From: Puniceicoccales bacterium
Lineage (GTDB): Bacteria; Verrucomicrobiota; Verrucomicrobiia; Opitutales; JAIRLG01
Direction of reading: 5' to 3'
NCBI GenBank assembly: GCA_031288595.1
Contig: JAITRB010000004.1
Coordinates: 9,491 to 73,490 of the forward strand
Length of the DNA: 64,000 bases
Both the position numbers and the translations under genes were made by a program. The notes beneath the pieces were generated by a model, which worked only from the letters and a program-made list of their open reading frames with translations, searched no databases and was not told the DNA's origin. The first letter of the stretch is position 1. Every line of letters begins with the position of its first letter. Below, piece by piece: positions 2,083 through 54,609 of this stretch.

Positions 2083-2140
2083 TCTTCTGGAGAAATATTT
2101 TCTGGAGAAACATTGGGATAGATGGGAAAAGGTGCATCCG

Positions 2141-2248
2141 CGCGCAACGGCCCCCGTCAGAAGGACAGCGAGGCTTCGCTGTCCTTCCGACGGGGCCTTC
2201 CTGCTCCGCAGGAAGGCCTCCTTTGCTTTGCAAAGGGGCCGTTGCGCG
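2141..2248. repeat. Intergenic four-helix palindromic element, variant (type 2) copy
   Basis: A 14-bp outer stem CGCGCAACGGCCCC/GGGGCCGTTGCGCG encloses three hairpins. They are GAAGGACAGCG-loop-CGCTGTCCTTC, GGCCTTCCTGC-TCC-GCAGGAAGGCC and TTTGC-TTT-GCAAA. The first hairpin is built from the type-1 terminal sequences in swapped order. The copy lies between convergent sufD-like and membrane-protein genes. Confidence 0.7.
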
Positions 2249-2281
2249 GAGAAAGCATAAGAGAGCCGAACCGGGACCTTG

Positions 2282-6005: not shown

Positions 6006-6114
6006 TTTGGCGCCTTTGGAGGCCTTTGGGCTCCGGCCCGCGGCGCGGGCCGCGGCCGAGGGAGAGGGAGAGCTGTCCCAGCTCTCCCTCTCCCTCGGGC
6101 GCAAAGGCGCCAAA
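6006..6114. repeat. Intergenic four-helix palindromic element, type 1 (order a-b-c on + strand)
   Basis: The closing stem is TTTGGCGCCTTTG/CAAAGGCGCCAAA. Arm a is imperfect (GGAGGCC-TTT-GGGCTCC). Arm b is GGCCCGC-GGC-GCGGGCC. Arm c is a perfect 20-bp stem (CCGAGGGAGAGGGAGAGCTG-TCC-CAGCTCTCCCTCTCCCTCGG). It lies in the divergent lptD/recD2 spacer. Confidence 0.85.
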
Positions 6115-12680: not shown

Positions 12681-12792
12681 GCGCGATGACCCCTTTGCGA
12701 AGCAAAGGGGAAGACAGGCATCTCGCCGGGGCGAGATGCCTGTCTTCCGGTGGGAGCCCGAATGACCTTCGGGCTCCCACCGGTCATCGCGC
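12681..12792. repeat. Intergenic four-helix palindromic element, variant (type 2) copy
   Basis: The outer stem GCGCGATGACC/GGTCATCGCGC encloses three hairpins. They are CCCCTTTGC-GAA-GCAAAGGGG, a 17-bp GAAGACAGGCATCTCGC-CGGG-GCGAGATGCCTGTCTTC, and GGTGGGAGCCC-11 nt-GGGCTCCCACC. The copy lies in the divergent nudix/accA spacer. It is followed by AAAAAAACACCTCC, the same tail as copy 48459-48555. Confidence 0.7.
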
Positions 12793-13884: not shown

Positions 13885-13905
13885 GGAGATCAGGAATTTT
13901 CTTGT

Positions 13906-14002
13906 TTTCGCTGTCTTTGGATTCCGAAGGAATTGCCCGCTGCGCGGGCTACGAGGAGGCGCTGGCGCAAGCGCCAGCACCTCCTCACCAAAGACAGCGA
14001 AA
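13906..14002. repeat. Intergenic four-helix palindromic element, type 1 (a-b-c)
   Basis: The closing stem is TTTCGCTGTCTTTGG/CCAAAGACAGCGAAA. Arm a is GATTCC-GAA-GGAAT. Arm b is GCCCGC-TGC-GCGGGC. Arm c is 16 bp (GAGGAGGCGCTGGCGC-AA-GCGCCAGCACCTCCTC) with one C:A mismatch on the + strand, which is G:U on the - strand. It lies in the convergent accA/rbfA spacer. Confidence 0.85.
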
Positions 14003-14084
14003 AATGATGCTGCGCCCTCGGGAACGGTCCACCATGGGGCTCGTCGCGAAGACCGAAGGACCCAAGAATACGGAGTTTTCTCCC

Positions 14085-20283: not shown

Positions 20284-20360
20284 TGGCGAGGTGGACGGGA
20301 CTTGAACCCGCGACCTTCGGCGTGACAAGCCGACGCTCTAGCCAACTGAGCTACCACCCC
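20284..20360 (-). tRNA. tRNA-Asp (anticodon GTC), CCA encoded
   Basis: The reverse complement reads GGGGTGGTAGCTCAGTTGGCTAGAGCGTCGGCTTGTCACGCCGAAGGTCGCGGGTTCAAGTCCCGTCCACCTCGCCA. The 7-bp acceptor stem has one G:U pair. The D-loop is AGCTCAGTTGG. The anticodon loop TTGTCAC gives GTC. The T-arm is GGTTCAAGTCC. Confidence 0.9.
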
Positions 20361-20480: not shown

Positions 20481-20578
20481 CTGCGCTGTCTTTGCAGGTG
20501 CGAAATGGCCTGAAAGGCCATTTCGCACCTGGGGCTCGCGGAGCGAGCTGAGCCCTGTGGGCTCCAAAGACAGCGCAG
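20481..20578. repeat. Intergenic four-helix palindromic element, type 1 (c-b-a)
   Basis: The closing stem is CTGCGCTGTCTTTG/CAAAGACAGCGCAG. Arm c is a perfect 16 bp (CAGGTGCGAAATGGCC-TGAAA-GGCCATTTCGCACCTG). Arm b is a variant (GCTCGC-GGA-GCGAGC). Arm a is GAGCCC-TGT-GGGCTC. It lies between clpC and tRNA-Asp. Confidence 0.85.
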
Positions 20579-26434: not shown

Positions 26435-27718
26435 GTGGATGGTTCGAAGGTATTGTGCGTCATCATGGGAGGAGGACGGGGCCGGCGCCTAGATCCGCTG
26501 ACGAGATGCCGCTGCAAACCGGCCGTGCCGCTAGCGGGGAAGTACCGCCTGGTCGACATCCCCATCAGCAACTGTCTGAATTCGGGCTTCAACCGCATCT
26601 ACATCCTGACCCAATTCAACACCCGCTCGCTGCACCGCCACATCGAGAACAGCTACCGTTTCGACAGCTTCGGTGGAGGAAAGATCGAGATCTTTTCGGC
26701 CGAACAGACTCAGGATAGTTCCGACAGTTGGTACGAGGGTACCGCCGATGCAGTTCGCAAGAACATGCGTTACTTCCACACCTCGGAGGACGACCTGATG
26801 ATCATCCTCTCCGGTGACCAGCTCTACCGCATGAACATCGCCGACCTGGTGGAGCAGCACCGACTCCACGGTTCTGATGTGACGATTGCTGCCAAGGCCA
26901 TCCCCAATGAGCGGATCTCTTCCTTCGGCGTCATGCGCGTTCTACCGGATCTCTCCATCGCGGAGTTCTTCGAAAAACCGGATGATCCGGAACTCATCGA
27001 ACAACTGACCCTGGCTGGCGAGTGGCGTAGCCGCTTAAAAGATCAATCCTCCAAAAAATACAGCCTGGCCTCGATGGGCATCTACGTCTTCAGGGCGGAA
27101 ATCCTGAAACGGGCTCTGGCGAGCTGTGGATCCGATTTCGGAAAGGAGATCATCCCGGGGCTTTTGGGAAAAGTCGCGATGCGGGCCTATATCTTCGACG
27201 ACTACTGGGAGGATATCGGAACGGTGCGCTCCTTCTTCGATGCCAACCTAGGCCTGACCTCGCCACAGCCGGAATTCAACTTCTACGATGCACTGGCGCC
27301 GATCCATACACATCCGAGCATCCTGCCCGCGTCGAAAGCAAACCACTGCGAGCTGGAAGAGGTTCTGATCTCGGATGGCTGTCTTCTGGAAGAGGTCCAT
27401 CTGAAGCGCTGCGTGCTGGGCCTCTGCTCTGTCGTCCGTGAGGGAACGCGTATGGAAAATGTCCTCATGATGGGTTCCCGCCACTACGAATCGCTGGAGG
27501 AAGGGCCGACGTCTGAGAGCGAGGTACCGCCCATCGGCGTGGGCTGTCACAGCTACGTTCGGGACTGCATCATCGATAAAGGTGCTCGCATCGGGAACCA
27601 TGTGCATCTGAGTCCCGAAGGCAAGGAGGACGGATTTGAGTACAATGGGCTCTATGTCCGCGATGGTATTCTCTGCATCGGTCGGGATGCCGTCGTTCCG
27701 GACCACACCGTGCTCTAG
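26435..27718 (+). CDS. glgC: Glucose-1-phosphate adenylyltransferase
   Basis: The sequence VIMGGGRGRRLDPLTRCRCKPAVPLAGKYRLVDIPISNCLNSG matches GlgC. The start is GTG. The C-terminus is a left-handed beta-helix region. Confidence 0.9.
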   Translation: MDGSKVLCVIMGGGRGRRLDPLTRCRCKPAVPLAGKYRLVDIPISNCLNSGFNRIYILTQFNTRSLHRHIENSYRFDSFGGGKIEIFSAEQTQDSSDSWYEGTADAVRKNMRYFHTSEDDLMIILSGDQLYRMNIADLVEQHRLHGSDVTIAAKAIPNERISSFGVMRVLPDLSIAEFFEKPDDPELIEQLTLAGEWRSRLKDQSSKKYSLASMGIYVFRAEILKRALASCGSDFGKEIIPGLLGKVAMRAYIFDDYWEDIGTVRSFFDANLGLTSPQPEFNFYDALAPIHTHPSILPASKANHCELEEVLISDGCLLEEVHLKRCVLGLCSVVREGTRMENVLMMGSRHYESLEEGPTSESEVPPIGVGCHSYVRDCIIDKGARIGNHVHLSPEGKEDGFEYNGLYVRDGILCIGRDAVVPDHTVL

Positions 27719-27898
27719 CCCTCCTCTGGGTCCGCAGAGCGGATATCCCTTCCCCGGGAATGAAAAGACTTGAAAATGTCCGCCGCGCGCTTTCCGTCAC
27801 CCCCATGCCCGCGATTTTTGAGGTTCCCACCGGGCCGAAAATCTGTATAATTCTAATCATAGAGAACTGGGCGAGGAGATTTCCGTAGTCAGCAAAAC

Positions 27899-28675
27899 GT
27901 GTCCCAAGAAGAGGAAAGTTCAGAAAAGGTCTCTGCCTCGTCGATTCCGGAGGAGCGGGAAGAGGATGCGGATCGGCGCTGCGGGCAGATTTTAGAAGAA
28001 CTCTGGGAAGAGTTCCCTCTCTCTCCCAGTACGCCCTTACCATGGCCGGTGATCTGGGTGAGTGGCGCACCGGGATCTGGAAAAGGGGTCAATGCCGGCT
28101 ACGTGAAGCGTGTTCTCGGAATATCCGCGGAACCGGTGGTCATCAGCGAGCTCTTGCAATCGCAGGATTCGAGAAGCCGCATCGACCACGGAGACCTGGT
28201 CGACGATCTCAGCGTCATTCGGGCGAGCCTGAAGGCTCTGCTGCAGGCCAGAGGCGGTGAAGGCCTGCTGATGGACGGCTATCCGCGCTCCCTGCTCCAG
28301 GCGAAATTCCTGCACCGGTTGGAGGAGAAATGGCGGGCTTTGGGACTTGGAATGCTCCAATTTCGGATGCTCGTCTTTTCCGTCGACGAGGCGACGAGCC
28401 TGGAACGGCAGCTCTCCCGTGGCCGCAAGGCGATGGCCCACAATCAGGAAGTCAAGCGGACCGGGAAGGGGGTACTGCGCGAGGTACGCCCGACGGACAT
28501 CGATGAAACGCTGGCCCGCCGGCGCTACCATACCTTTCTCCAGGAGACCGATGCGGCCCTGCGCCATCTCCAATCGACTGGCATGCCTTTTGTCGAAATC
28601 GACAGCCGCGGCCCTTTCGAGGTCGTCCAAAGGCGCATCGAGCAGAAACTCAGGCCCTGGATTTCCAATTCCTGA
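27899..28675 (+). CDS. Adenylate/nucleoside-monophosphate kinase-like protein with acidic N-terminal extension
   Basis: It has a P-loop GAPGSGKG, DGYPR, and RPTDIDETLARRRY, which resembles the adenylate kinase R-x-D-D segment. The canonical NMP-binding TGD(L/M)LR motif is absent. The first 50 aa or so are rich in E and S. The start is GTG. Confidence 0.5.
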   Translation: MSQEEESSEKVSASSIPEEREEDADRRCGQILEELWEEFPLSPSTPLPWPVIWVSGAPGSGKGVNAGYVKRVLGISAEPVVISELLQSQDSRSRIDHGDLVDDLSVIRASLKALLQARGGEGLLMDGYPRSLLQAKFLHRLEEKWRALGLGMLQFRMLVFSVDEATSLERQLSRGRKAMAHNQEVKRTGKGVLREVRPTDIDETLARRRYHTFLQETDAALRHLQSTGMPFVEIDSRGPFEVVQRRIEQKLRPWISNS

Positions 28676-28847: not shown

Positions 28848-28958
28848 TTTTTGGGGGCTGTCTTTGCCGCGGGAGGAATGAAAGGGAATTTTTCATTCCT
28901 CTCGCGGGGGCCCGCTTCGCGGGCGAGCCCTCCGGGCTCCAAAGACAGCCCCCAAAAA
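28848..28958. repeat. Intergenic four-helix palindromic element, type 1 (c-b-a)
   Basis: The 19-bp closing stem is TTTTTGGGGGCTGTCTTTG/CAAAGACAGCCCCCAAAAA. Arm c is 16 bp (CGCGGGAGGAATGAAA...TTTCATTCCTCTCGCG) with one G:T on the + strand. Arm b is GCCCGC-TTC-GCGGGC. Arm a is GAGCCC-TCC-GGGCTC. It lies between the adk-like gene and prfA. Confidence 0.85.
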
Positions 28959-34736: not shown

Positions 34737-35330
34737 TCAGAGCTTTCTCCGCGCAAGGATGGCCGTGTGCAGCGTATCGGCATCGGCCAGAGCGATGCCA
34801 CTGCCGGAGGGAAGACCGAAGCCGATTCGCGTGACCTCTTTACCCAGCGGCTGGAGAATTTCCCTGAGAATGTATTGGCAGGTCGCCTCGCTCTCGGTGT
34901 CGCCGCCGAGGGCCAAAATGACCTCGCGGGTTTTCTCCTGCTCCAGGCGATGGCGCAGGTGAGCGAGCGGAAGATTTTGGGGAAGAACGCCACGGATGGG
35001 CGAGAGCTTGCCGCCGAGCACCTGGTAGCGCCCGCGAAAATCTCCGCTGCGCTCGATCGCATAGAGGTCGGGAATCGTCTCGACGAGACAGAGAAGGGAG
35101 CTGTCCCGTGCCGGATCCGAGCAGATGGAGCAGCGCTCCGCTTCGGCCAGGTTGCCGCAGAGGGAACACATTTGCAGGGCATCGAGGGAGGATGAAAGGC
35201 CCCGGATGAGCTCCTGTGCCTGTTCTCTCCCCTCCAGCAGGAGATAGAGTGCCATGCGCTCGGCCGAGCGGTAGCCGATACCAGGTAGGCGGCGAAGGAT
35301 TTTTTTCAGCGCATCGAAGGAAGCTAACAT
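34737..35330 (-). CDS. recR: Recombination protein RecR
   Basis: A helix-hairpin-helix is present (LPGIGYRSAERMALYLL). The zinc finger is CSLCGNLAEAERCSIC. A Toprim region follows. The start overlaps the upstream ABC gene stop by 7 nt. Confidence 0.93.
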   Translation of the reverse strand: MLASFDALKKILRRLPGIGYRSAERMALYLLLEGREQAQELIRGLSSSLDALQMCSLCGNLAEAERCSICSDPARDSSLLCLVETIPDLYAIERSGDFRGRYQVLGGKLSPIRGVLPQNLPLAHLRHRLEQEKTREVILALGGDTESEATCQYILREILQPLGKEVTRIGFGLPSGSGIALADADTLHTAILARRKL

Positions 35331-37183
35331 AAACGACTCGGATGGTTCAAAATGCCCTGGTGTTTGCGGTAGAGCTCGCGGTAGAGACCGCCTGGATGGG
35401 TCATCAACTCGTCATGCGTGCCGCGCTCGGTCATATGCCCATGTCGGAGGACGAGGATCTCATCGACGATGGCCATCATGCCGAGGCGGTGCGAGATGAT
35501 GAGGACGGTCTTGTTCCGCACGAGCTGGCGAATCGCCTGCTGAATGGCGTGTTCGCTGTGTGCATCGAGGGCCGAGGTGACCTCGTCCAGGACGAGAATT
35601 GGAGCCTGTTTCAGAAAGGCCCGAGCCAGAGCGATGCGCTGCCGCTGTCCGCCGGAGAGAAAATTTCCATTCTCACCGATATCCGTCCGATAGCCCTGTT
35701 CGAGCTGGCAGATGAACTCGTGGGCATGAGCACTTTGAGCGGCTGCGATGACCTCCTCCTCGCTGGCCTCCCACTTACCCCAGCGGATATTATCTCCTAT
35801 ACTGCCGCTCAGAAGCGTGGGGTTCTGGGGGACGAAGGCCATGTGGGCCCGCAGGTCTTCAAGGGCTAGCTCGCGGATGTCGAGGCCATCGATGCAGATT
35901 TTTCCCTGCCGCACATCGTAGAACCTCATGAGCAGATTGATCAGAGTCGTCTTGCCGGCACCGCTGCTGCCCACCAGGGCATAGATTTTCCCCGTTTCGA
36001 GTCGCCAGTCAAGGTCGTGGATGACGGTTTGCTCCGGAGTGTATCCAAAAGAGATGTGCTGGAAATGCACCTCTCCGCGGAGCTCGCGTATGGGCACGGG
36101 ACTTTTGGGATTCTGAATGCTTTCCGGAATTTCCAGCAGCGACTGTATCCGGCTGAGCCCGGCAAACCCAGTCTGGATACGGGTAGCCAACCAGCCCAGT
36201 TTTTTGATGGGGTCATAGCTGAAGTAGAGGGCACCGGTTAGGGCGATGAAGGTGTCGATGGGAATGCGATGCCGGTAGGAAAAGTACATGGAGAGGCTGA
36301 CCCCGACGGCGGCGATGATTTCGATGATAGGAGAGACGAGGATATTGTACTTGAGGGACTGCAAGGAGGCCCTGGAGAAGAGGCGACAAGCTTCTGCGAA
36401 ACGCGCCGTTTCGCGCTGCTCCATGCAGAAGGCCCGGATCTCCTGGACAGCCGAGAGGTTGCGGCTCAGGCGCTCGGTGAGAGTGGCCGCTTCGCCCTGG
36501 ACCTGGCCGGCCTTGAACCTGAGGCGGCGGTTCAGCGCACGGACGGGTAGGATGATCAGCGGAAAGGCGGCAGCATAGAGGATCAACACGAAGACTTGGG
36601 ATTGCTGGAGGCAGAGGTAGAGGAGGGCCCCCACCGAGGCGAGGAAGGTAATGGGCTGCGTGAGGATATTTTCAGCGATGTCCAGCAATGCCCCTTGCAG
36701 AAGGGCAGTGTCGTTCATCGCCCGGGATATGATTTCACCGGCCGAGGTTTTGTGGAAAAATTCCAGCGGTAGGCGCTGAATCTTGGCGAAGACCTGGACA
36801 CGGATATTTTCCAGCAGGCGCTGCCCGCAGAAACCGGTGTAATAGGCACTGCAGAAGCCGGAAATTCCCCGTAGGCCCATCATGAGGAATGGACAGGCGC
36901 AGAAGAGAAGGATACAGAGGGGAGACTGGTGCGCAGCCGTAAAGACGTACTTGGCGGCTACTTTCAAGATGAAAGGCACGCCGAAACCACTGGAAAGTCC
37001 GCAGAGAATACCGCAGGCGATGGCGAAGAAGAGCTGCCTTCTCAGCTCCCTCAAGTAGCGGAAATAGGAGAACAGGGAACAGGAACGCTGCCAGAGGGAT
37101 GGATTGCTCGCCGTTCGCGCTTTCATCAGGCCTTCAGCTAAGCGGCAATTTCGATGCGGTAAAGGGAATTGGCACTGGGTCAT
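35324..37183 (-). CDS. ABC exporter, fused permease and ATPase (MsbA-like lipid flippase family)
   Basis: A six-TM N-terminal domain is present. The ATPase motifs are Walker A GSSGAGKTT, signature LSGGQRQRIALARA and Walker B ILVLDEVTSALD. An alternative ATG lies at 37126. Confidence 0.8.
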   Translation of the reverse strand: MTQCQFPLPHRNCRLAEGLMKARTASNPSLWQRSCSLFSYFRYLRELRRQLFFAIACGILCGLSSGFGVPFILKVAAKYVFTAAHQSPLCILLFCACPFLMMGLRGISGFCSAYYTGFCGQRLLENIRVQVFAKIQRLPLEFFHKTSAGEIISRAMNDTALLQGALLDIAENILTQPITFLASVGALLYLCLQQSQVFVLILYAAAFPLIILPVRALNRRLRFKAGQVQGEAATLTERLSRNLSAVQEIRAFCMEQRETARFAEACRLFSRASLQSLKYNILVSPIIEIIAAVGVSLSMYFSYRHRIPIDTFIALTGALYFSYDPIKKLGWLATRIQTGFAGLSRIQSLLEIPESIQNPKSPVPIRELRGEVHFQHISFGYTPEQTVIHDLDWRLETGKIYALVGSSGAGKTTLINLLMRFYDVRQGKICIDGLDIRELALEDLRAHMAFVPQNPTLLSGSIGDNIRWGKWEASEEEVIAAAQSAHAHEFICQLEQGYRTDIGENGNFLSGGQRQRIALARAFLKQAPILVLDEVTSALDAHSEHAIQQAIRQLVRNKTVLIISHRLGMMAIVDEILVLRHGHMTERGTHDELMTHPGGLYRELYRKHQGILNHPSRLC

Positions 37184-37196
37184 CGCGGCGTGTCCT

Positions 37197-38087
37197 CTAG
37201 CGCCGCTTGCGAATGTAGGCGATCTCTGCCCAGTCGCCGGATGTCCGCAGAGAGGAGTAGAATTCCTGCCAGTATTTCTTGGCCAGAGGGTCGAAGACGG
37301 ACTGAATCTCGGACCCTTCCTCCTTCAGGATGCCGCTCAGGGACAGCGTGCCGCCGGGCAGCACCGCGCGCAGCAGGAGGCCGGCGTGCAACTTCAGCAC
37401 CGGCGCCAGGATATTGACGGATAGGAGATCGGCTTGGCGACCGAGTAAGCCATAGGCGATGTCGGCCTCCTGGAAGTCGATGGCGGAATCCGGAATGCCA
37501 TTGGACCTCGCATTCTCGCGGCTGACGCTAATGGCCTGTGGGTCGTGATCAAAGCCGAAAATTTTGCGAAAACCCAGCTTATAGGCGGCGATGGAGAGGA
37601 TGCCCGATCCGCAACCGGCATCGATGTAACTCTGGGTATCGAGAAACTGGGGATGGAAGGTGATGGTGTCGACCAACCGTGCCAGGCAGAGCTGTGTCGT
37701 CTCGTGTGCTCCCGTTCCAAAGGCCAGGCCGGCGTCCAGATAAATGCCCTGCTGGCCGTTAGGAATTCTGTAGTCCTTTCTCATCCACTCCGGCACGATG
37801 TGCAGGGGACCGATGGCGAAAGGCTTGATGAATTCCTTGTAGTGATTTTTCCAATCCGTTTCCTTCAGGACTTCCCTGGTGGGACTATAGAGCTTCAGGC
37901 GGGGGAGATGCCGGCAGAGCAATTGCCAGGCGGGTTCGATGGAGGATTCGTCGGGAAAGTAGGCGCAGAGATGGACGGATTCTCCCGGCCTCTGCTCGAG
38001 GCTCCATTCCATGCCTTTCACTTGAATCAGGGCCTCCTCCACAAGCGCCGTATCGGCCATCCCCAGCTCAACCCAGAATCGGTACAT
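37197..38087 (-). CDS. prmA: Ribosomal protein L11 methyltransferase PrmA
   Basis: The SAM motif is IDAGCGSGILSIAA. The GLAFGTGAHETT motif is typical of PrmA. Confidence 0.85.
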   Translation of the reverse strand: MYRFWVELGMADTALVEEALIQVKGMEWSLEQRPGESVHLCAYFPDESSIEPAWQLLCRHLPRLKLYSPTREVLKETDWKNHYKEFIKPFAIGPLHIVPEWMRKDYRIPNGQQGIYLDAGLAFGTGAHETTQLCLARLVDTITFHPQFLDTQSYIDAGCGSGILSIAAYKLGFRKIFGFDHDPQAISVSRENARSNGIPDSAIDFQEADIAYGLLGRQADLLSVNILAPVLKLHAGLLLRAVLPGGTLSLSGILKEEGSEIQSVFDPLAKKYWQEFYSSLRTSGDWAEIAYIRKRR

Positions 38088-38151
38088 GCGAGATGATCCA
38101 AGCTAAATCATGAGACTTCGCAACGGTCACCTGCTACTTCCCCTACACCCT

Positions 38152-38253
38152 CCCTCCGTTGTCTTTGGATTCCGAAGGAATCCGGCCCGCTTCGCGGGCC
38201 GCAAGCTAAGAACAAAATCACTTTTGTTCTTAGCTTGCAAAGACAACGGAGGG
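38152..38253. repeat. Intergenic four-helix palindromic element, type 1 (a-b-c), twin of 39117-39214
   Basis: The closing stem is CCCTCCGTTGTCTTTG/CAAAGACAACGGAGGG. Arm a is GATTCC-GAA-GGAATC. Arm b is GGCCCGC-TTC-GCGGGCC. Arm c is a perfect 16 bp (CAAGCTAAGAACAAAA-TCAC-TTTTGTTCTTAGCTTG). It lies just downstream of rpe. Confidence 0.9.
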
Positions 38254-38280
38254 CACTTCGCGCAAGTGCGAATATTCCTA

Positions 38281-39024
38281 TCAGACATGGAGAGGAAAAA
38301 GTTTTCTCAGAGCTTCTCGCTGAGCAGGATCGAAAAAACTACTTCCAGAGACCAATAGATCCGCTCCATGCTGGAGGCAGTCTTGAGCCGTAGTTACATT
38401 AATCCCTCCATCAACCGCTATGAAAAAGGGAAGCTTATGCTGCCGCCGCAGCTTACCGATGCGATCGATCTTCATCAAGACATCAGGGTTAAAGCTCTGC
38501 CCACAGAATCCAGCTTGTACAGCCATGAGGAGCACGACATCGACCTGTTCCAGCCATGGCACTAATCTTTCGGGAGATGTACCCAAGTCACAGGCCAAGC
38601 CGACTAGAACGTTCTCCTCCCGCACATACTGCAGCATGTCTCTGCTTGTCCCTTGCGATTCGATATGAAAGGAGATGAGGTCTGCTCCGGCTTCGATGAA
38701 GCTTTCTAGAAAAATCTCCGGATGTTCCAGCATGAGATGGACATCAAAGAGAAGAGAACTGCCTTTCTTGAGGGCTTTCAGGGTTTGTGCCCCGAAGCTG
38801 AGGTTCGATACGAAATGCCCGTCCATGATATCCATATGAACCCAAGGAAGCTGATGGAGCTCGATGATTTTTTGACTGGATCGCAGATCTCCCTGATCAC
38901 CGCTGAGCAGAGAAGGGATGAGCAGCGGAGAGGAAAGTTTTTGGATTGCGGACCTTGGAGTAATAATGGTACCTCTAGGAGATTTTTCTTGAATGACGCT
39001 CTTCTTATCCTGGGTTGACCTCAT
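38281..39024 (-). CDS. rpe: Ribulose-phosphate 3-epimerase
   Basis: The motifs IPSLLSGD, VHMDIMDGHFVSNLSFG and VDGGIN are present. An N-terminal extension of about 30 aa precedes the conserved core, so the true start is uncertain. Confidence 0.88.
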   Translation of the reverse strand: MRSTQDKKSVIQEKSPRGTIITPRSAIQKLSSPLLIPSLLSGDQGDLRSSQKIIELHQLPWVHMDIMDGHFVSNLSFGAQTLKALKKGSSLLFDVHLMLEHPEIFLESFIEAGADLISFHIESQGTSRDMLQYVREENVLVGLACDLGTSPERLVPWLEQVDVVLLMAVQAGFCGQSFNPDVLMKIDRIGKLRRQHKLPFFIAVDGGINVTTAQDCLQHGADLLVSGSSFFDPAQREALRKLFPLHV

Positions 39025-39116
39025 CTCTTTTCATCCCTGCGGGATTTTAAGACTCATTCAAATCAAGGGCGAGAGTTTTCGATGGATTTCTGTGCTTCCT
39101 TTCCCCTGTATATTCT

Positions 39117-39214
39117 CTCCGCTGTCTTTGGATTCCGCAGGAATCCGGCCCGCTTCGCGGGCCGCAAGCTAAGAACAAAACTACTTTTGTTCTTAGCTTG
39201 TAAAGACAGCGGAG
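39117..39214. repeat. Intergenic four-helix palindromic element, type 1 (a-b-c), twin of 38152-38253
   Basis: It matches copy 38152-38253 except for about 6 positions. These include a compensatory pair in the closing stem (CGCTGTC...GACAGCG versus CGTTGTC...GACAACG). It lies just upstream of rpe. Confidence 0.9.
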
Positions 39215-39288
39215 GACACAAAACCCTTGAGCTCTTCTCCCAATATCGCGGATGAAGAGCCGGGAGAATCGACTAAGGAGAGGGGTCT

Positions 39289-39852
39289 TTAGCGAGATGG
39301 CGGCTTGGCGTTCTGCTTTTTCTGAACTTCTGGCAAAGGCCATGAATGGGTCACCGCGCGTCCGACCAGCTCGGCTAAATCTCGCGTCAAAATCGGAAGG
39401 ATGGCATGATGGATATCCTCTGTTTCAGAAACTTCGCTGAGCGTATCGGTGCCGATGCACAGGCCTTGGAAAAGATAAGCATTGCTCTTCGTACTTCTGA
39501 GAGCAGCCGAGGCCTGTAGCGACAGCTTCAGCGACTGGGGCCGCTCATCCTGCTGGCTCTCCAAGTGAGTATCAAAAGACTCCAGGGTGATTTCCAGAAC
39601 GACGTCGGCCTGGGACTCCTCCACTAATTTCCACCCGGAGGTGCGGATGAAATAACGCTGCAGCTGCTCGTTGAAAATGCCCTCGGCCTGAGGGGCGAGG
39701 GATAGGTTGCGAACCGGCGTGATGGCGATGCGGATGGCTCTCTTGGGAACCCCCAAAGTAGAACCTATCTCCCCCATACCCATCCGGTAGGCACATCCGG
39801 AGAACAGGATCATCGAACCCAGAAAGCAGAACGCGAAAAATCGTCCCTTCAT
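39289..39852 (-). CDS. Lipoprotein, possibly LptE-like
   Basis: A lipoprotein signal is present (MKGRFFAFCFLGSMILFSGC). The size of about 187 aa and the segment IAITPVRNLSLAPQAEGIFNEQLQRYF resemble LptE. The assignment is weak. Confidence 0.35.
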   Translation of the reverse strand: MKGRFFAFCFLGSMILFSGCAYRMGMGEIGSTLGVPKRAIRIAITPVRNLSLAPQAEGIFNEQLQRYFIRTSGWKLVEESQADVVLEITLESFDTHLESQQDERPQSLKLSLQASAALRSTKSNAYLFQGLCIGTDTLSEVSETEDIHHAILPILTRDLAELVGRAVTHSWPLPEVQKKQNAKPPSR

Positions 39853-39866
39853 TTTCGCAGAAAGGA

Positions 39867-41153
39867 TCAGAATCCCGAGCTCAGCTGCACTTGAGTCGGC
39901 TTAATGTCCAGAGCTGAATCCGTCGATTTAGGAGATGGCGGCAGAAAATCCTCCACCTTTTGCTCCTGCAATCGGCGGGAATGGCCTATTCTAGTTCCAC
40001 TTCTTTCCGTCTGTTCCTCGGGAAAAGGCCTATTGGGCCCTTCTGGGTCTGGTTCTGGGAAAATACTGTCATCAGGGCCTTTAGGAGCAACTGGAGAGGA
40101 GAGCGAAGCCAGCCAACGCTGATTTTTCGCGTCCTGCTTGCGGGAATCGAAGAGAAAGTCGACGGGGGACTTCGGGGCCGCCTGACCCTGGCGGAGTCGT
40201 TGGCGCTTCCCTTCGACTTCCTCGATGATCTCTCTCGAGGAATGGATAGCCAAGGCCTCGCCGTAAAGGAGGTCGGCTGCTGGCCAGTTATTCTGAGAAA
40301 AGTAATAAAAGTCTCCCATATAAATTTTGGCCCGGGCCAGAGAGGCCTTGAGATGCTCGATCTGGCCCTGGGCCCAACGGCATCTTTCGTGCTCCGGAAA
40401 GAGGAAAATAAAATCCTCGTAGTAGCTCAGGGCTTCCCTCAGCGCCCCTTGGTCGTATTCCGGCGAGAGGACAAGGCTTTCATAGATCTCCGCCGTGAGA
40501 AGATAGGCCTCTGGGGTGAGCTCGGACTGGGGATAGCGGTCGATCAGCCGATCGAGGGTTTCGATGGCCTTGTCGGGACGTTTCTGCTCCTTTTCGATCT
40601 GGGCGATGCACAGGAGGGCCTGCGCTGCCCCTGGTGACGAGGGCGCCTTCTGGACGACATTTTGATAGAAATCGATGGCGGATTTGGGATCCCGAAATCC
40701 AGGGATGAGGCCGAAGTAATGGGGCCTTTGGCCGGACTGCAGCCGGGCTGCGATTTGAAAGATCCGTTCGACGACATCGTTAAAATACCCATAGTCCGGA
40801 TACTGATCCAATATCTTTCTGAGCTGCTTGACGGCATAGAGGTACTGATGCGATGCCTCGTAGATCGCGGCGATTTGCCACAGTGCCAAGGGCGACCAGC
40901 TCGCATCACGGGCATTCTCCACCTCTTGGAATAGCCGGCGGGCGCGGCGTGACTCTCCCCGTTTCTGGAGGCGACAGGCCTCGTCGTAGCTCCTCTGCAA
41001 ACTCTCTTCCCGCGCGGCCGCATCCGCGAGAGCTTGCCAGCTGCGGTCACCCCCTCTGGCTCGCCGGTGTGCCCCAGGGCGGGAATACGCCTCGGAGTCA
41101 TGGATGAGGGCCAAGAGGCCGATGCCGATGAAAACGGAAGAGAGGACTCGCAT
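39867..41153 (-). CDS. TPR-repeat outer-membrane assembly factor, BamD-like, with Pro/charged C-terminal tail
   Basis: There is a signal sequence. Repeated TPR-like units contain YP motifs (ILDQYPDYGY, LIDRYPQSEL, FLFPEHERC). The segment AKIYMGDFYYFSQNNWPAADLLY resembles the BamD C-terminal helix pair. Confidence 0.5.
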   Translation of the reverse strand: MRVLSSVFIGIGLLALIHDSEAYSRPGAHRRARGGDRSWQALADAAAREESLQRSYDEACRLQKRGESRRARRLFQEVENARDASWSPLALWQIAAIYEASHQYLYAVKQLRKILDQYPDYGYFNDVVERIFQIAARLQSGQRPHYFGLIPGFRDPKSAIDFYQNVVQKAPSSPGAAQALLCIAQIEKEQKRPDKAIETLDRLIDRYPQSELTPEAYLLTAEIYESLVLSPEYDQGALREALSYYEDFIFLFPEHERCRWAQGQIEHLKASLARAKIYMGDFYYFSQNNWPAADLLYGEALAIHSSREIIEEVEGKRQRLRQGQAAPKSPVDFLFDSRKQDAKNQRWLASLSSPVAPKGPDDSIFPEPDPEGPNRPFPEEQTERSGTRIGHSRRLQEQKVEDFLPPSPKSTDSALDIKPTQVQLSSGF

Positions 41154-41171: not shown

Positions 41172-42185
41172 CTATTCGGATTGAAGGAGGGCTGCACCCC
41201 ATGTCAATCCGGCGCCGAAGGCGAGGGTCAGTAACTTTTTTCCCCGAGCAATCCTCTCGGATCGGACGGCCTCGTCGAGGGCGATGGGGATGGCGGAGGT
41301 GGAAGTATTGCCGTAGCGATCCAGGGTGATGGTGATTCTGTCCTGCGGGATTTGCAGGTGCTGGGCGACCGCATTGATGATTCGGATATTGGCTTGATGC
41401 GGGATGAGATAATCGATCTCGCCTGAACTCAGCCCATTGCGCCGCAAAATTTCCTCCGCACATTCGCCCATAACCTGGACCGCTTCTCGGAAAACCCTTT
41501 TCCCATCCATGCGAAAAAAGTGTTCGCGCCCCTCCACGGTTTGCGGCGAGGCCGGTCGGCGAGAACCTCCGGCGGGCATGATGATTTGGTCGGCCCCCAG
41601 GCCATCGGCTCCGAGGAGAATATCGCTAATCTGCAATCTCAGCCCCTCTGGGGGAGAATTTCCCTCCGAATCCTCCGAGCGGCCAACGATGACAGCTCCG
41701 GCTCCATCACCCAGCAGGACGCAGCTGCTGCGGTCCTGCCAGTCGGTGACGGAAGACATCTTATCTCCGCAGACGAAGAGGATGTGGCGGCAATGCGGAT
41801 CTCCCAACAGGCATTGCCGGGCCAGGTGCAAGCCATAGGGAAATCCCGAACAGGCGGCGTTGATGTCCAGAGCCGGAATAGGACGGCAATTCAGGCACCG
41901 TTGCAGGTAACAGGCCGTCGCCGGAAAGGGCGTGTCGGGGGTGATGGTGGCAACGAGAATCAGGTCGATGGCCTCCGGCCCGAGTCGGGCGGCCTCGAGG
42001 GCCCGGAGCGAAGCGTGATAGCAGAGATCGGAGCTCGCCTCTTCCTCCGACGCGATACGCCTTTCCCGAATGCCGGTACGGGTTCGAATCCACTCGTCAT
42101 TCGTGTCCACCCGAAGGGATAGCTCGTCGTTCGTCAAGACCTTTTTCGGCACGTAGGATCCCGTCCCACAGATGAAGATAGGCAT
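41172..42185 (-). CDS. fabH: 3-oxoacyl-ACP synthase III
   Basis: The active-site Cys context is NAACSGFPYGL. The motifs HQANIRII and GNTSTSAIP are present. The gene sits in rpmF-plsX-fabH order. Confidence 0.93.
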   Translation of the reverse strand: MPIFICGTGSYVPKKVLTNDELSLRVDTNDEWIRTRTGIRERRIASEEEASSDLCYHASLRALEAARLGPEAIDLILVATITPDTPFPATACYLQRCLNCRPIPALDINAACSGFPYGLHLARQCLLGDPHCRHILFVCGDKMSSVTDWQDRSSCVLLGDGAGAVIVGRSEDSEGNSPPEGLRLQISDILLGADGLGADQIIMPAGGSRRPASPQTVEGREHFFRMDGKRVFREAVQVMGECAEEILRRNGLSSGEIDYLIPHQANIRIINAVAQHLQIPQDRITITLDRYGNTSTSAIPIALDEAVRSERIARGKKLLTLAFGAGLTWGAALLQSE

Positions 42186-42268
42186 GTGGGGTGCTTATGA
42201 AGCTCCTACAAGCCAAGTGGCAAGTTTTAACGTTCTATGAGTTCTAAATGGGGAGCGTTCCCTACGTG

Positions 42269-42360
42269 TTGGCTGGCTTTGCAAGGGACAAATGGCTTCT
42301 GCCATTTGTCCCTTGCGGCCCGCGCAGCGGGCCCGATGCTTTGCCTCGAAAGCCAGCCAA
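42269..42360. repeat. Intergenic four-helix palindromic element, type 1 (c-b-a)
   Basis: The closing stem is TTGGCTGGCTTTG/CGAAAGCCAGCCAA. Arm c is a perfect 15 bp (CAAGGGACAAATGGC-TTCT-GCCATTTGTCCCTTG). Arm b is CGGCCCGC-GCA-GCGGGCCG. Arm a is weak (CGATGC-TTT-GCCTCG, one mismatch). It lies inside the plsX-fabH spacer. Confidence 0.8.
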
Positions 42361-42407
42361 CAAAATTAACAATTCACCCTTTCCCCAAAGAGATCGGGCC
42401 TCCGGCA

Positions 42408-48458: not shown

Positions 48459-48555
48459 TTGCCGGCTTTCCCCCGGAGGGCCCAGGACATCTGTCCTGGG
48501 CCCTCCGGGGAGCCCGCAGAGCGGGCATGATTCCTTTGGAATCGAAAGCCGGCAA
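48459..48555. repeat. Intergenic four-helix palindromic element, type 1 (c-b-a)
   Basis: The closing stem is TTGCCGGCTTTC/GAAAGCCGGCAA. Arm c is about 17-19 bp (CCCCGGAGGGCCCAGGACA-TC-TGTCCTGGGCCCTCCGGGG). Arm b is GCCCGC-AGA-GCGGGC. Arm a is GATTCC-TTT-GGAATC. It lies in the convergent gspF/thrS spacer. It is followed by AAAAAAACACCTCC. Confidence 0.85.
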
Positions 48556-54509: not shown

Positions 54510-54609
54510 GGTCGCCTTTGGAGCCTTCGGCTCCGGCCCGCTGCGCGGGCCCCGCCGAGGGGAAAGGGAAGAGAAATCTCTTCCCTTTCCCCTCGGCGTA
54601 AAGGCGACC
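54510..54609. repeat. Intergenic four-helix palindromic element, type 1 (a-b-c)
   Basis: The closing stem is GGTCGCCTTTG/TAAAGGCGACC, with the innermost pair G:T on the + strand. Arm a is GGAGCC-TTC-GGCTCC. Arm b is GGCCCGC-TGC-GCGGGCC. Arm c is a perfect 20 bp (GCCGAGGGGAAAGGGAAGAG-AAAT-CTCTTCCCTTTCCCCTCGGC). It lies between the ACP and the lolD-like gene. Confidence 0.85.

Follow-up and report, generated by a model that had tools for sequence, protein, structure and literature searches.

Near-identical nested-palindrome repeats on both sides of rpe in a Puniceicoccales genome probably reflect local duplication within an abundant repeat family

In the stretch of Puniceicoccales DNA analyzed here (64,000 nucleotides, called the window), the gene rpe is flanked by two near-identical copies of a folded repeat, which we call E1 and E2. 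A first-pass annotation had likened this arrangement to a gene cassette between repeats and had named the local duplication of one element as the alternative. The question is whether rpe is mobile cargo or a long-standing resident beside which a repeat has been copied. The features of the locus are as follows.

37197 to 38087, minus strand: prmA, the downstream neighbor of rpe, 85% identical to prmA of the sister genome
38152 to 38253, plus strand: E1, nested-palindrome repeat in the rpe/prmA spacer, arm order a-b-c (covariance model 91.9 bits, E = 1.5e-20)
38176 to 38217, plus strand: 42-nt tract identical to 39139-39180 of E2, the longest tract for homologous recombination between E1 and E2
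38281 to 39024, minus strand: rpe, ribulose-phosphate 3-epimerase, 247 amino acids, intact (PF00834, E = 1.5e-52)
39117 to 39214, plus strand: E2, nested-palindrome repeat in the lptE/rpe spacer, arm order a-b-c (covariance model 89.8 bits, E = 4.8e-20)
39289 to 39852, minus strand: lptE-like gene, the upstream neighbor of rpe, 187 amino acids in the window and the sister and 210 to 214 in the outgroups

The two copies have the same orientation and are offset by 963 bp, against the ~965 bp given by the annotation, and rpe is the only gene between them, as had been stated. A repeat search returned a 119-nt pair (38138-38256 and 39101-39219) with 89% identity and a spacing of 963. The earlier estimate of about six differences was confirmed by a count of six across the 98-nt range of the annotation, namely (E1/E2) 38159 T/C, 38175 A/C, 38218-19 TC/CT, 38238 C/T, and 38246 A/G; two further differences in the outermost stem (38153 and 38253) raise the number to eight over 102 nt. 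Arm c is shared as well: the 16-mer CAAGCTAAGAACAAAA is confined in the window to E1 and E2, with four arm matches against 0.15 expected. When up to three mismatches were allowed, no convincing recurrence was seen in ~400 kb of related loci, and the sharing of arm c is not the coincidence that the annotation had considered. E1 and E2 are true paralogues and not chance carriers of a common arm c.

Beyond the closing stems, the similarity of E1 and E2 is not above background. An apparent extension of the duplication ~30 nt past the closing stem on the prmA side (TGCT..TTCCCCT) was rejected, as 17% of 5,000 flank pairs from other elements score as high, and a putative decayed half-element upstream of the rpe start (39035-39065, from the repeat search) was rejected for want of a covariance-model match. 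In an independent Logan assembly (L001, SRR14710895), a 981-nt contig spans 38188..39168 and stops on both sides at the start of the 42-nt identical tract, in agreement with the arrangement E1-rpe-E2.

Each copy is predicted to fold into a closing stem of 14 to 16 bp with arms of 7, 7, and 17 bp and zero unpaired junction bases. The free energies are -75.1 kcal/mol for E1 and -70.3 kcal/mol for E2 (z = -13.0 and -12.7, respectively), and the opposite strand folds equally well. The parts of E1 and the variable stem pair are listed below.

E1 closing stem: CCCTCCGTTGTCTTT(G)
E1 arm a: GGATTCC/GGAATCC
E1 arm b: GGCCCGC/GCGGGCC
E1 arm c: GCAAGCTAAGAACAAAA/TTTTGTTCTTAGCTTGC
38159, plus strand: 5' partner in the compensatory pair (alignment column 6), a T in E1; E2 (39122) has C, as do 27 of 28 family members
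38246, plus strand: 3' partner in the compensatory pair (alignment column 102), an A in E1; E2 (39209) has G

Positions 38159 and 38246 pair with each other, T-A in E1 and C-G in E2, which upholds the compensatory substitution reported before. The T-A pair is derived in E1, because C-G is present in all but one of the 28 aligned family members and in the sister orthologue. The further proposal that pairing is kept while sequence varies holds for the family at large, in which compensatory changes occur at 26 of 40 consensus pairs.

The family to which E1 and E2 belong consists of 95- to 115-nt nested palindromes, in which a closing stem and three hairpins meet without unpaired junction bases. 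The closing stem is a perfect inverted repeat of 13 to 19 bp with the conserved core GCTGTCTTTG/CAAAGACAGC. A structure scan of the 64-kb window detected 14 copies, and an unfiltered covariance-model search yielded exactly the same 14; the density is ~1 per 4.6 kb, among housekeeping genes. Spacers of all three kinds, convergent, tandem, and divergent, contain copies, and the copies run either with or against transcription. Besides E1 and E2, the following members, together with those of a related second family, were recorded.

2137 to 2250, minus strand: related second family of the same architecture, closing stem CGCGCAACGGCC; weak covariance-model match (E = 4e-7)
6006 to 6114, plus strand: family member, closing stem CGCCTTTG; structure scan and covariance model
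12681 to 12792, plus strand: related second family, closing stem GCGCGATGACC; covariance-model match (E = 1.9e-5)
13905 to 14003, plus strand: family member; sister orthologue L055 769-879
20481 to 20578, minus strand: family member; orthologue L018 3353-3450, arm c with a compensated 3-bp block and an inverted loop
23269 to 23369, plus strand: family member; orthologue L018 210-318
26265 to 26361, minus strand: family member; structure scan and covariance model
28848 to 28958, minus strand: family member; orthologue L029 5297-5410
30219 to 30313, minus strand: family member; orthologue in L029 at ~3780
42267 to 42362, minus strand: family member in the plsX/fabH spacer, closing stem GGCTGGCTTT; orthologue L005 6367-6462, with two compensated pair changes in arm c
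48459 to 48555, minus strand: family member; structure scan and covariance model
54510 to 54609, plus strand: family member; structure scan and covariance model

Outside the window, the family was found only in three related Puniceicoccales metagenome-assembled genomes (MAGs). All 62 copies that were ascertained there by the 10+10-nt stem core only enclose exactly three hairpins, compared to 1 of 13 chance matches of the core in other taxa; a single viral-contig match (n = 1) does not fold like the element and was discarded as a chance match. In the window and sister genomes one arm differs from copy to copy and is always perfectly paired, and in low-GC relatives one arm c is common to many copies. 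Whichever strand is read, the 5' flank is T/G-rich and the 3' flank A/C-rich. Insertion polymorphism is evident from the sister, which has elements in the prmA/ABC and adk-like/glgC spacers, where the window has none, and whose element in the lptD/recD2 spacer differs from that of the window.

Target-site duplications were not found, the direct repeats flanking 152 copies having a mean of 0.69 compared to 0.68 for shuffled flank pairs, and solitary half-sites occur in the window at chance level only. A transposase was not seen among the 47 window open reading frames (ORFs) or 150 element-adjacent ORFs of relatives, and the latter revealed no multi-copy transposase family. A search of the window with Rfam 15 gave no family match at the gathering score for the repeats, the sole hit being a tRNA at 20287-20360, and at E values up to 10 the region 38100-39260 gave sub-threshold miRNA-hairpin look-alikes only. 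No description was found in literature on Verrucomicrobiota or Puniceicoccales repeats or on bacterial four-way-junction or nested-palindrome repeats. As judged by Rfam and the searchable literature, the family is apparently undescribed.

All four helices covary. At three stem positions outside the fixed core, 56 to 60 of the 62 copies have Watson-Crick pairs, with three or four pair types each, and overall 3115 of 3201 stem positions are Watson-Crick paired, with 43 G.T and 24 A.C mismatches. Orthologous elements differ by compensated blocks of 2 to 3 bp and by inverted loops, and one orthologous element has its entire interior in opposite orientation in L002 and L004. The footprints of template switching in DNA palindromes include multi-base compensatory changes, arm homogenization, and inversion of spacers or loops (PMC8794818, PMC8604942). 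As 97% of the stem positions are Watson-Crick paired, the two strands behave alike, and changes come as blocks and loop inversions, covariation alone is no proof of selection on RNA; the pattern appears to fit replication template switching at the DNA level rather than an RNA-specific constraint.

The gene-cassette reading of rpe was not borne out by the synteny comparison that the annotation had proposed. The order lptE-rpe-prmA is conserved in six other Puniceicoccales genomes with one or no element, and only the sister lacks rpe between lptE and prmA. Four outgroups have a single element, located in the rpe/prmA spacer, and two more distant relatives have none; in the outgroups lptE and rpe abut or overlap, so that no E2-type spacer exists. 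The order fabH-TPR-lptE-rpe-prmA is ancestral. The N terminus of the window's rpe is ~21 codons longer than in the outgroups.

Neighboring twins are not peculiar to rpe. In the sister, arm c is at least 80% identical in 7 of 117 element pairs from the same locus and in 31 of 4254 pairs from different loci (odds ratio 8.7, Fisher p = 5e-5). Six of the seven sister twins have the same orientation, at distances of 1 to 6 kb, and most bracket one ordinary gene (eno, pheS, a gspE-like gene, uppS, and others); as at rpe, the similarity is limited to the element itself. The genes inside the clearest other twins have a normal third-position GC content (GC3) of 0.76 to 0.87, and the idea that twins generally mark foreign cassettes was rejected on these grounds. 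One sister twin has a second copy with no counterpart in the window, which shows that new copies do arise. Because single-gene twins of the same orientation recur in the sister, short-range duplication is the best explanation of the pair, and the alternative named in the annotation is the best-supported reading. Since the gene order is ancestral and the genes inside the other twins are ordinary core genes, rpe is no mobile cassette.

We therefore consider it probable, though by no means assured, that the twin is a local duplication in an abundant repeat family around an ancestral rpe. On this view, E1 and E2 are paralogues within a non-coding, high-copy DNA repeat that is specific to the lineage; as a single strand, be it DNA or RNA and whichever strand is taken, the repeat is predicted to fold into a perfect four-way junction. 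The older site would be that of E1 in the rpe/prmA spacer, and E2 would be a short-range duplicate in the same orientation, placed in the next intergenic gap upstream; the direction E1 to E2 is the one we infer, and members of the family would make such duplicates repeatedly. T-A in place of C-G would be a double substitution in E1, one case of the family-wide upkeep of Watson-Crick pairing. This upkeep may occur by hairpin- or cruciform-templated correction, that is, by replication template switching within the palindrome, and selection for the fold may reinforce it. As side effects, the 963-bp interval between direct repeats with a 42-nt identical core would be prone to deletion, and any lptE-rpe-prmA transcript would contain structures of about -70 kcal/mol, through which the elements might affect the mRNA. 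Several observations weigh against this reading. The single element of the sister, without rpe, suits repeat-mediated excision, or insertion and duplication, at least as naturally as it suits simple duplication and a later, unrelated deletion; rpe is an outlier in composition, with a GC3 of 0.51; neither a target-site duplication nor, in the ORFs inspected, a transposase points to a means of copying; and the same twin would be obtained from two older, independent elements by gene conversion.

The sister is the closest relative, and the sole close one, and its MAG is fragmented. It carries lptE, one element, and prmA, without rpe at this site. As seen in L005 and in the independent assembly L006, lptE is followed by ~95 nt homologous to the window's lptE-E2 spacer, by 67 extra unalignable nt, by an element that matches the window in closing stem, arm a, and arm b, and by a flank homologous to the window's E1-prmA spacer. 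An alignment of the extra 67 nt to the spacer upstream of rpe (39035-39065 region) was not significant (p = 0.14), and tblastn detected no rpe at the other retrieved loci. Recombination or slippage between direct repeats classically deletes the intervening DNA, with one copy remaining. The arrangement of the sister is the product expected from recombination between direct repeats, but it is accounted for just as well by other histories; rpe may have been deleted through the repeats or acquired anew.

The deletion history supposes that the ancestor had element-rpe-element and that rpe was deleted in the sister, the window being the state before and the sister the state after; arm c of E1 and E2 would have been kept alike by conversion, or all changes would lie on the sister branch. 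We regard it as possible rather than probable. It is in keeping with the sister layout and with the 42-nt tract common to E1 and E2. By nucleotides, E1 and E2 (92% identity) are far closer to each other than either is to the sister element (76 to 78%), which speaks against it, but counted as events the two divergences are similar (6 to 8 for E1-E2 and ~5 to 6 for E1 or E2 versus the sister element). A dating of the twin to after the split of window and sister was dropped for the same reason, as it holds in nucleotides (8% versus 22 to 24%) and fails by events. The 67 unalignable nt of the sister also speak against it. A chimeric E2-left/E1-right pattern, which would speak for it, is not visible in the sister element, where the diagnostic positions do not discriminate: E1 carries the derived state of the compensatory pair and E2 that of two single changes, and the remaining differences lie in loops.

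The composition of rpe raises a different possibility, namely that the ancestor lost rpe and the window lineage regained it from a lower-GC relative, for example by a Campbell-type single crossover of a circle with rpe and an element, which would duplicate the element on both sides. At 0.51, against 0.707 +/- 0.054 (z = -3.6), the GC3 of rpe is the lowest among the real genes of the window and resembles the outgroups, whose GC is 46 to 47%. The closest rpe homologue anywhere has 61% identity, whereas an 85% relative exists for prmA. The sister shows the predicted empty site, and the greater likeness of E1 and E2 to each other than to the sister element is also in agreement. The low GC3 is not explained by plain vertical history; it is also close to the non-coding GC of the genome (0.546), and relaxed codon selection is an alternative reading. 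Capture is nevertheless unlikely. It would require the gene to have returned to precisely its deeply ancestral site, and an element of foreign origin is not expected to match the resident one in arm c. Window-outgroup protein distances give a ratio of 0.84 for rpe, much like the 0.85 to 0.89 of its neighbors, and rpe does not nest within the outgroup clade. The normal GC3 of genes inside the other twins likewise argues against it.

Concerted evolution, in which two independent elements flanking rpe were homogenized by gene conversion across 963 bp, appears doubtful to us. The abrupt end of similarity at the element borders is what homology-limited conversion would produce, all members share enough core sequence to pair, and a drop of similarity with distance between neighbors is expected from conversion, too. 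Against this, the copy-unique 38-nt arm c would have to be converted as heterology, no outgroup has an element at the lptE/rpe junction, and the second copy of one sister twin has no window counterpart at all.

It is similarly improbable that the elements are functional RNAs or transcription signals, acting as terminators, attenuators, or mRNA stabilizers that set rpe expression, and that the compensatory pair reflects selection on RNA. The folds are very stable, all helices covary, closing stems and arms a and b have been conserved in the window and its sister, and REP/BIME-type repeats are known to affect mRNA stability. An intrinsic-terminator test, however, revealed no U-tract and no terminator-like or promoter-like site at E1 or E2. 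Copies occur in every spacer type and in both orientations to transcription, one orthologous element is inverted in L004 relative to L002, wobble pairs and A.C mismatches are equally rare, Rfam gave no match, and the same genes are expressed in outgroups that have one element or none.

A more far-reaching proposal is that the four-way-junction repeats are sites of structure-specific recombination that excises or integrates the DNA between same-orientation copies, and we judge it very unlikely. If true, it would be a cassette mechanism unrelated to integrons that acts on core genes, and the rpe interval would be one such unit, with a single site kept in the sister and a compositionally foreign rpe in the window. 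That a repeat-induced mis-join placed rpe between collapsed or duplicated copies of one element is extremely improbable: this is a short-read metagenome assembly of a repeat-rich genome, and contigs of relatives often end in elements, but the copies differ at eight positions with a longest identical stretch of 42 nt, contigs of relatives from the same project are named k119_, implying 119-mers that span the 42 nt and phase loops a and c, and the Logan assembly has rpe between copy-specific k-mers on both sides.

Among known elements, REPs and BIMEs, which are mobilized by RAYT transposases, resemble the family in being high-copy, intergenic, palindromic, G+C-rich, and lineage-specific, with a stable fold on either strand and compensated stem evolution; they are free of target-site duplications and can also act on mRNA and give rise to rearrangements. 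A limited search of the 47 window ORFs and 150 element-adjacent ORFs revealed no RAYT (Y1 HUH transposase), and REP tags at both ends were present in 0 of 155 copies. REPs are single 20- to 40-bp hairpins with a GTAG or CGTC head (PMC3733652), and BIMEs are linear REP arrays of alternating orientation (PMC2817692), whereas the repeats described here measure 95 to 115 nt and have four helices, with three hairpins inside a closing stem of 13 to 19 bp. MITEs (Correia, ERIC/IRU, RUP, Nezha) are likewise non-coding sequences of ~100 bp with terminal inverted repeats that are scattered intergenically, differ in presence between close genomes, and spread in family bursts. In contrast to MITEs, the present elements have no target-site duplication, and their interior consists of three perfect palindromes. 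The DNA searched revealed no parent insertion sequence with matching ends.

With integron attC sites the locus shares one gene between imperfectly conserved palindromic sites in which folding outweighs sequence. However, the attC cores RYYYAAC/GTTRRRY were found in 0 of 155 copies, with neither motif in E1 or E2, and the repeats have no extrahelical bases. Pfam searches of the 47 window ORFs identified housekeeping genes only, with no tyrosine recombinase or integron integrase, and no attI is present in the window. The repeats flank housekeeping genes at conserved positions, E1 and E2 are twins whereas attC sites are normally cassette-specific, and rpe, missing between lptE and prmA in the sister only, does not behave as variable cargo on a fixed platform. 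The locus also differs from a composite transposon, the elements being non-coding and rpe being at its ancestral site. In form only, the repeats recall the ITRs of AAV, with an outer stem around small palindromes, a multi-arm junction, and "flip"/"flop" inversion of the interior, which is paralleled by copies with a-b-c and c-b-a arm order and by the L002 and L004 orthologues. AAV ITRs are the telomeres of a linear single-stranded DNA genome and have two internal arms and a Rep nicking site; the repeats here are chromosomal, internal, and three-armed. Template switching and direct-repeat deletion are mutational processes and not element families, and at this locus both are deduced from comparisons of two or three genomes.

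Taken as a duplication, the twin itself would be nothing out of the ordinary for a repeat family that spreads locally. What is unusual is the family, as its members are perfect four-way-junction palindromes with one arm that is unique to the copy yet perfectly paired. It offers a natural data set on whether the complementarity of palindrome arms is maintained by template switching or by selection, and on how far compensatory substitutions can count as evidence of functional RNA. The repeats have a practical side in that they fragment short-read assemblies of these bacteria, many contigs of which end in them. The rpe locus provides a testable case in which repeats bound a gene presence/absence difference between sister genomes.

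All genes around the two repeat copies E1 and E2 lie on the minus strand, and the rpe product is identical to NCBI MDR3143427.1.

Features around rpe in the window
35324-37183, minus strand, ABC transporter
37197-38087, minus strand, prmA
38152-38253, repeat copy E1
38281-39024, minus strand, rpe
39117-39214, repeat copy E2
39289-39852, minus strand, lptE-like gene
39867-41153, minus strand, TPR/YfiO protein
41172-42185, minus strand, fabH

The first-pass annotation reported that two nearly identical, same-orientation copies bracket rpe and carry a compensatory stem pair. Both observations were confirmed: E1 and E2 have the identical orientation, are spaced 963 bp apart, and differ at 6 positions over the 98-nt range used in that annotation or at 8 with the outermost stem counted, and the pair 38159/38246 is T-A in E1 and C-G in E2. 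Both copies fold alike, with a 14-16-bp closing stem and three arms (a, b, c) of 7, 7, and 17 bp, joined without an unpaired nucleotide. The free energies were -75 (E1) and -70 (E2) kcal/mol, ~13 SD under those of shuffles, and the complementary strands fold as well as the given strand. Beyond the closing stems the similarity is at background level, and no terminator-like or promoter-like signal was found at either copy. The possibility that this arm c might be common genome-wide was not borne out, as its 16-mer occurs within the window only in E1 and E2 (0.15 matches expected) and showed no convincing recurrence in ~400 kb of related DNA. E1 and E2 are twins by descent. A Logan assembly of a separate run contains a 981-nt contig made up of exactly rpe and the copy-specific portions of E1 and E2, which stops on both sides at the start of a 42-nt tract common to the two.

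A structure scan detected 14 elements of this architecture in the window (one per 4.6 kb, 2.2% of the DNA), and a covariance model built on 28 copies and run with filters off returned the identical 14. All are intergenic; both arm orders are represented, and the spacers that hold the elements may be convergent, tandem, or divergent. The element at 20481-20578 lies ~120 nt from a tRNA gene (20287-20360, minus strand; Rfam RF00005, 70 bits). Scanning the closing-stem core GCTGTCTTTG-N60-90-CAAAGACAGC in 185,579 species-representative genomes yielded 60 loci, 47 from three Puniceicoccales MAGs (Pcl387_bin38, Pcl387_bin136, and Ct408_bin121) and 13 scattered chance matches. Exactly three interior hairpins were present in 62/62 distinct Puniceicoccales copies versus 1/13 chance matches, a comparison that is unbiased because the copies were ascertained by the closing-stem core alone. 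RNAalifold analysis of the 28 copies gave a four-helix consensus of 40 pairs, 26 of which show compensatory changes. At the three stem positions just beyond the fixed core, 56-60 of the 62 copies have complementary bases, with 3-4 pair types. No two arms c are alike among the 62.

Each element of the window and of its closest relative, the sister genome, has a copy-specific arm c, unlike low-GC relatives (Pcl387_bin136 and Ct408_bin121; loci L012, L013, L017, L022, L025, L044, L056, and L066), in which the arm c GCGGTAAGGGAAAAATGCAAAGCGGGAGCTTTCATTTTTCCTTACCGC is common to many copies at 85-100% identity, as in a recent burst. Around 152 elements from the window and related loci, the 5′ side is T/G-rich and the 3′ side A/C-rich (e.g., TTTTGGGG...CCCCAAAA), so that the palindrome tapers off without a sharp end. 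Short-read contigs often stop within or beside an element (L001, L034, L041, L046, L070, and L073), and much of the assembly fragmentation in the clade appears to be due to the elements. A second repeat family likewise has a closing stem and three hairpins but an unrelated sequence, with a GCGCGATGGCC-type stem and one arm CCCTTTGCnnnGCAAAGGG. Members occur in the window (2137-2250 and 12681-12792), in the sister loci L005 (2652-2766) and L055 (932-1050 and 6178-6292), and in the related locus L021 (68-187 and 6024-6147); in the sister genome, a neighbour twin is found in this family, too.

The element had no match in Rfam, and we found no target-site duplication in the flanks of the 152 copies and neither REP-type GTAG/CGTC heads nor attC core sites in 155 copies. 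The 47 window ORFs scanned against Pfam are housekeeping throughout (e.g., recA, lptD, recD2, infB, nusA, clpB, pnp, ftsH, recR, topA, thrS, and ruvB) and include no transposase or integrase; 150 element-adjacent ORFs of relatives include no multi-copy transposase. The defining features set the element apart from attC sites, REP elements, and classical MITEs, and our literature search found no description of such elements. This is a new repeat family of the REP/MITE kind, belonging to no defined family.

Of the 28 aligned copies, 27 have C-G at 38159/38246, as does the sister orthologue; the T-A of E1 is therefore the derived state. The pair fits a family-wide rule that all stems remain complementary: 3115 of 3201 stem positions are Watson-Crick, with 43 G.T and 24 A.C mismatches. 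Elements occur in either orientation relative to transcription, and in the element downstream of rpe the entire interior is inverted between the outgroup loci L002 (3672-3777) and L004 (3959-4067): arm c is the same in both, but the arms enclosed by the closing-stem inverted repeats run a-b-c in one and c-b-a in the other. The Watson-Crick dominance, the folding of both strands, the free orientation, and this inversion point to stem complementarity at the level of DNA rather than RNA. In six orthologous element pairs of the window and the sister genome (82-89% nucleotide identity), the closing stems, arm a, and arm b have hardly changed, and arm c changes in fully compensated blocks of 2-3 adjacent pairs, such as TGC/GCA versus AGG/CCT (window 20481-20578, L018 3353-3450) and, at the rpe locus, CTA/TAG versus GGG/CCC (window 38152/39117, L005 9774-9907). 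Loops are inverted as well (TTTCA versus TGAAC; GAA in L005 10938-11041 versus TTC in L073 ~1205-1300). Judged from sequence, these blocks and reverse-complement loops resemble the traces that template switching during replication is described to leave in inverted repeats: compensatory mutations spanning several bases, homogenised arms, and inverted spacers (PMC8794818, PMC8604942). The compensatory pair, previously read as conservation of pairing, is thus real evidence that pairing is maintained, but, as the changes match the published footprints, it does not in our view argue for a functional RNA.

The suggestion that rpe is a gene cassette did not withstand a synteny survey, as the order lptE-rpe-prmA is kept in six other genomes and rpe is absent only in the sister genome. 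In two distant Puniceicoccales (L007 and L008/L009; GC 39-43%), fabH-TPR-lptE-rpe-prmA are closely packed with zero elements; in four intermediate genomes (L002, L004, L070, and L071; GC 46-47%), lptE abuts or overlaps rpe and a single element lies between rpe and prmA; the element between lptE and rpe is unique to the window (GC ~58%) among the genomes surveyed. The survey therefore places rpe in its ancestral position, with the rpe-prmA spacer as the older element site and E2 as an addition, and a cassette as general mechanism is not supported. The lptE-rpe spacer (39025-39288) measures 264 nt in the window versus abutting or overlapping genes in outgroups. Compared with outgroups, the window rpe ORF has ~21 additional N-terminal codons (38962-39024), and the lptE-like gene lacks ~24 aa at the C-end, a shortening common to the sister genome.

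The GC3 of rpe (0.51) is the lowest among real window genes (others, 0.707 ± 0.054) and near the genome's non-coding GC (0.546). Its protein distances to outgroups look vertical; the closest rpe among 5.8 billion proteins is only 61% identical, although the adjacent prmA has a relative at 85%. The low GC3 would fit long-relaxed codon selection on a gene altogether lost in the sister lineage, and would also fit a xenologue whose donor was an unsampled relative of lower GC.

In the sister genome (L005; the separate assembly L006 agrees), rpe is absent between lptE and prmA, the latter 85% identical to window prmA. There, lptE (187 aa) is followed by ~95 nt homologous to the window lptE-E2 spacer, 67 unalignable nt, a single element that matches E1/E2 in its closing stem and in arms a and b, and a flank homologous to the window E1-prmA spacer. 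This arrangement is close to what E2/E1 recombination would be expected to produce, and equally could be an 'empty site' prior to a gain of rpe with element duplication in the window; a third possibility is an independent deletion that ended at the palindrome. Divergence does not decide among the three: identity is 92% between E1 and E2 and 76-78% between either copy and the sister element, but the distances are similar when counted as events. This sister element (L005 9774-9907), like L073 ~75-195, has a partial second closing strand on each side that extends the palindrome symmetrically (CCTCCGCCGTT-TCCTCCGCTGTC ... GACAGCGGAGG-AAAGA-GACAGCGGAGG); in L045 the extension is on one side.

Twins are not confined to rpe. 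In ~250 kb of the sister genome, arm c was shared at ≥80% identity by 7 of 117 same-locus element pairs versus 31 of 4254 different-locus pairs (odds ratio 8.7, Fisher p = 5e-5). Six of these seven twins have the same orientation, their spacing is 1-6 kb, and the closest enclose one ordinary gene (enolase, pheS, a GspE-like ATPase, uppS, or an adenylate-kinase-like gene) of normal GC3 (0.76-0.87). Their similarity stops at the element, copy-specific outer stem included, and for one twin the orthologous site of the window holds no counterpart, indicating that new copies arise.

Sister elements also occupy window-empty sites between prmA and the ABC transporter gene (L005 10938-11041; window 37183-37197) and between the adk-like gene and glgC (L029 6671-6780; window 27718-27899). 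Each is accompanied by 150-230 nt of extra non-coding DNA, so that intergenic indels near elements exceed element size. The lptD-recD2 spacer holds unrelated elements of opposite arm order in the window (6006-6114) and the sister (L036 80-182), a sign that elements at a fixed site turn over or are replaced.

The recurrence of neighbour twins makes the rpe arrangement one case of short-range spread into an adjacent intergenic gap and favours the alternative raised at the outset, local duplication of one element. This account would also allow a repeat-mediated loss of rpe on the sister branch. We therefore regard, with moderate confidence, a local duplication within a DNA-level nested-palindrome family as the most likely origin of the twins; E2 would have been added in the gap next to the older E1 site, with rpe as an ancestral bystander.
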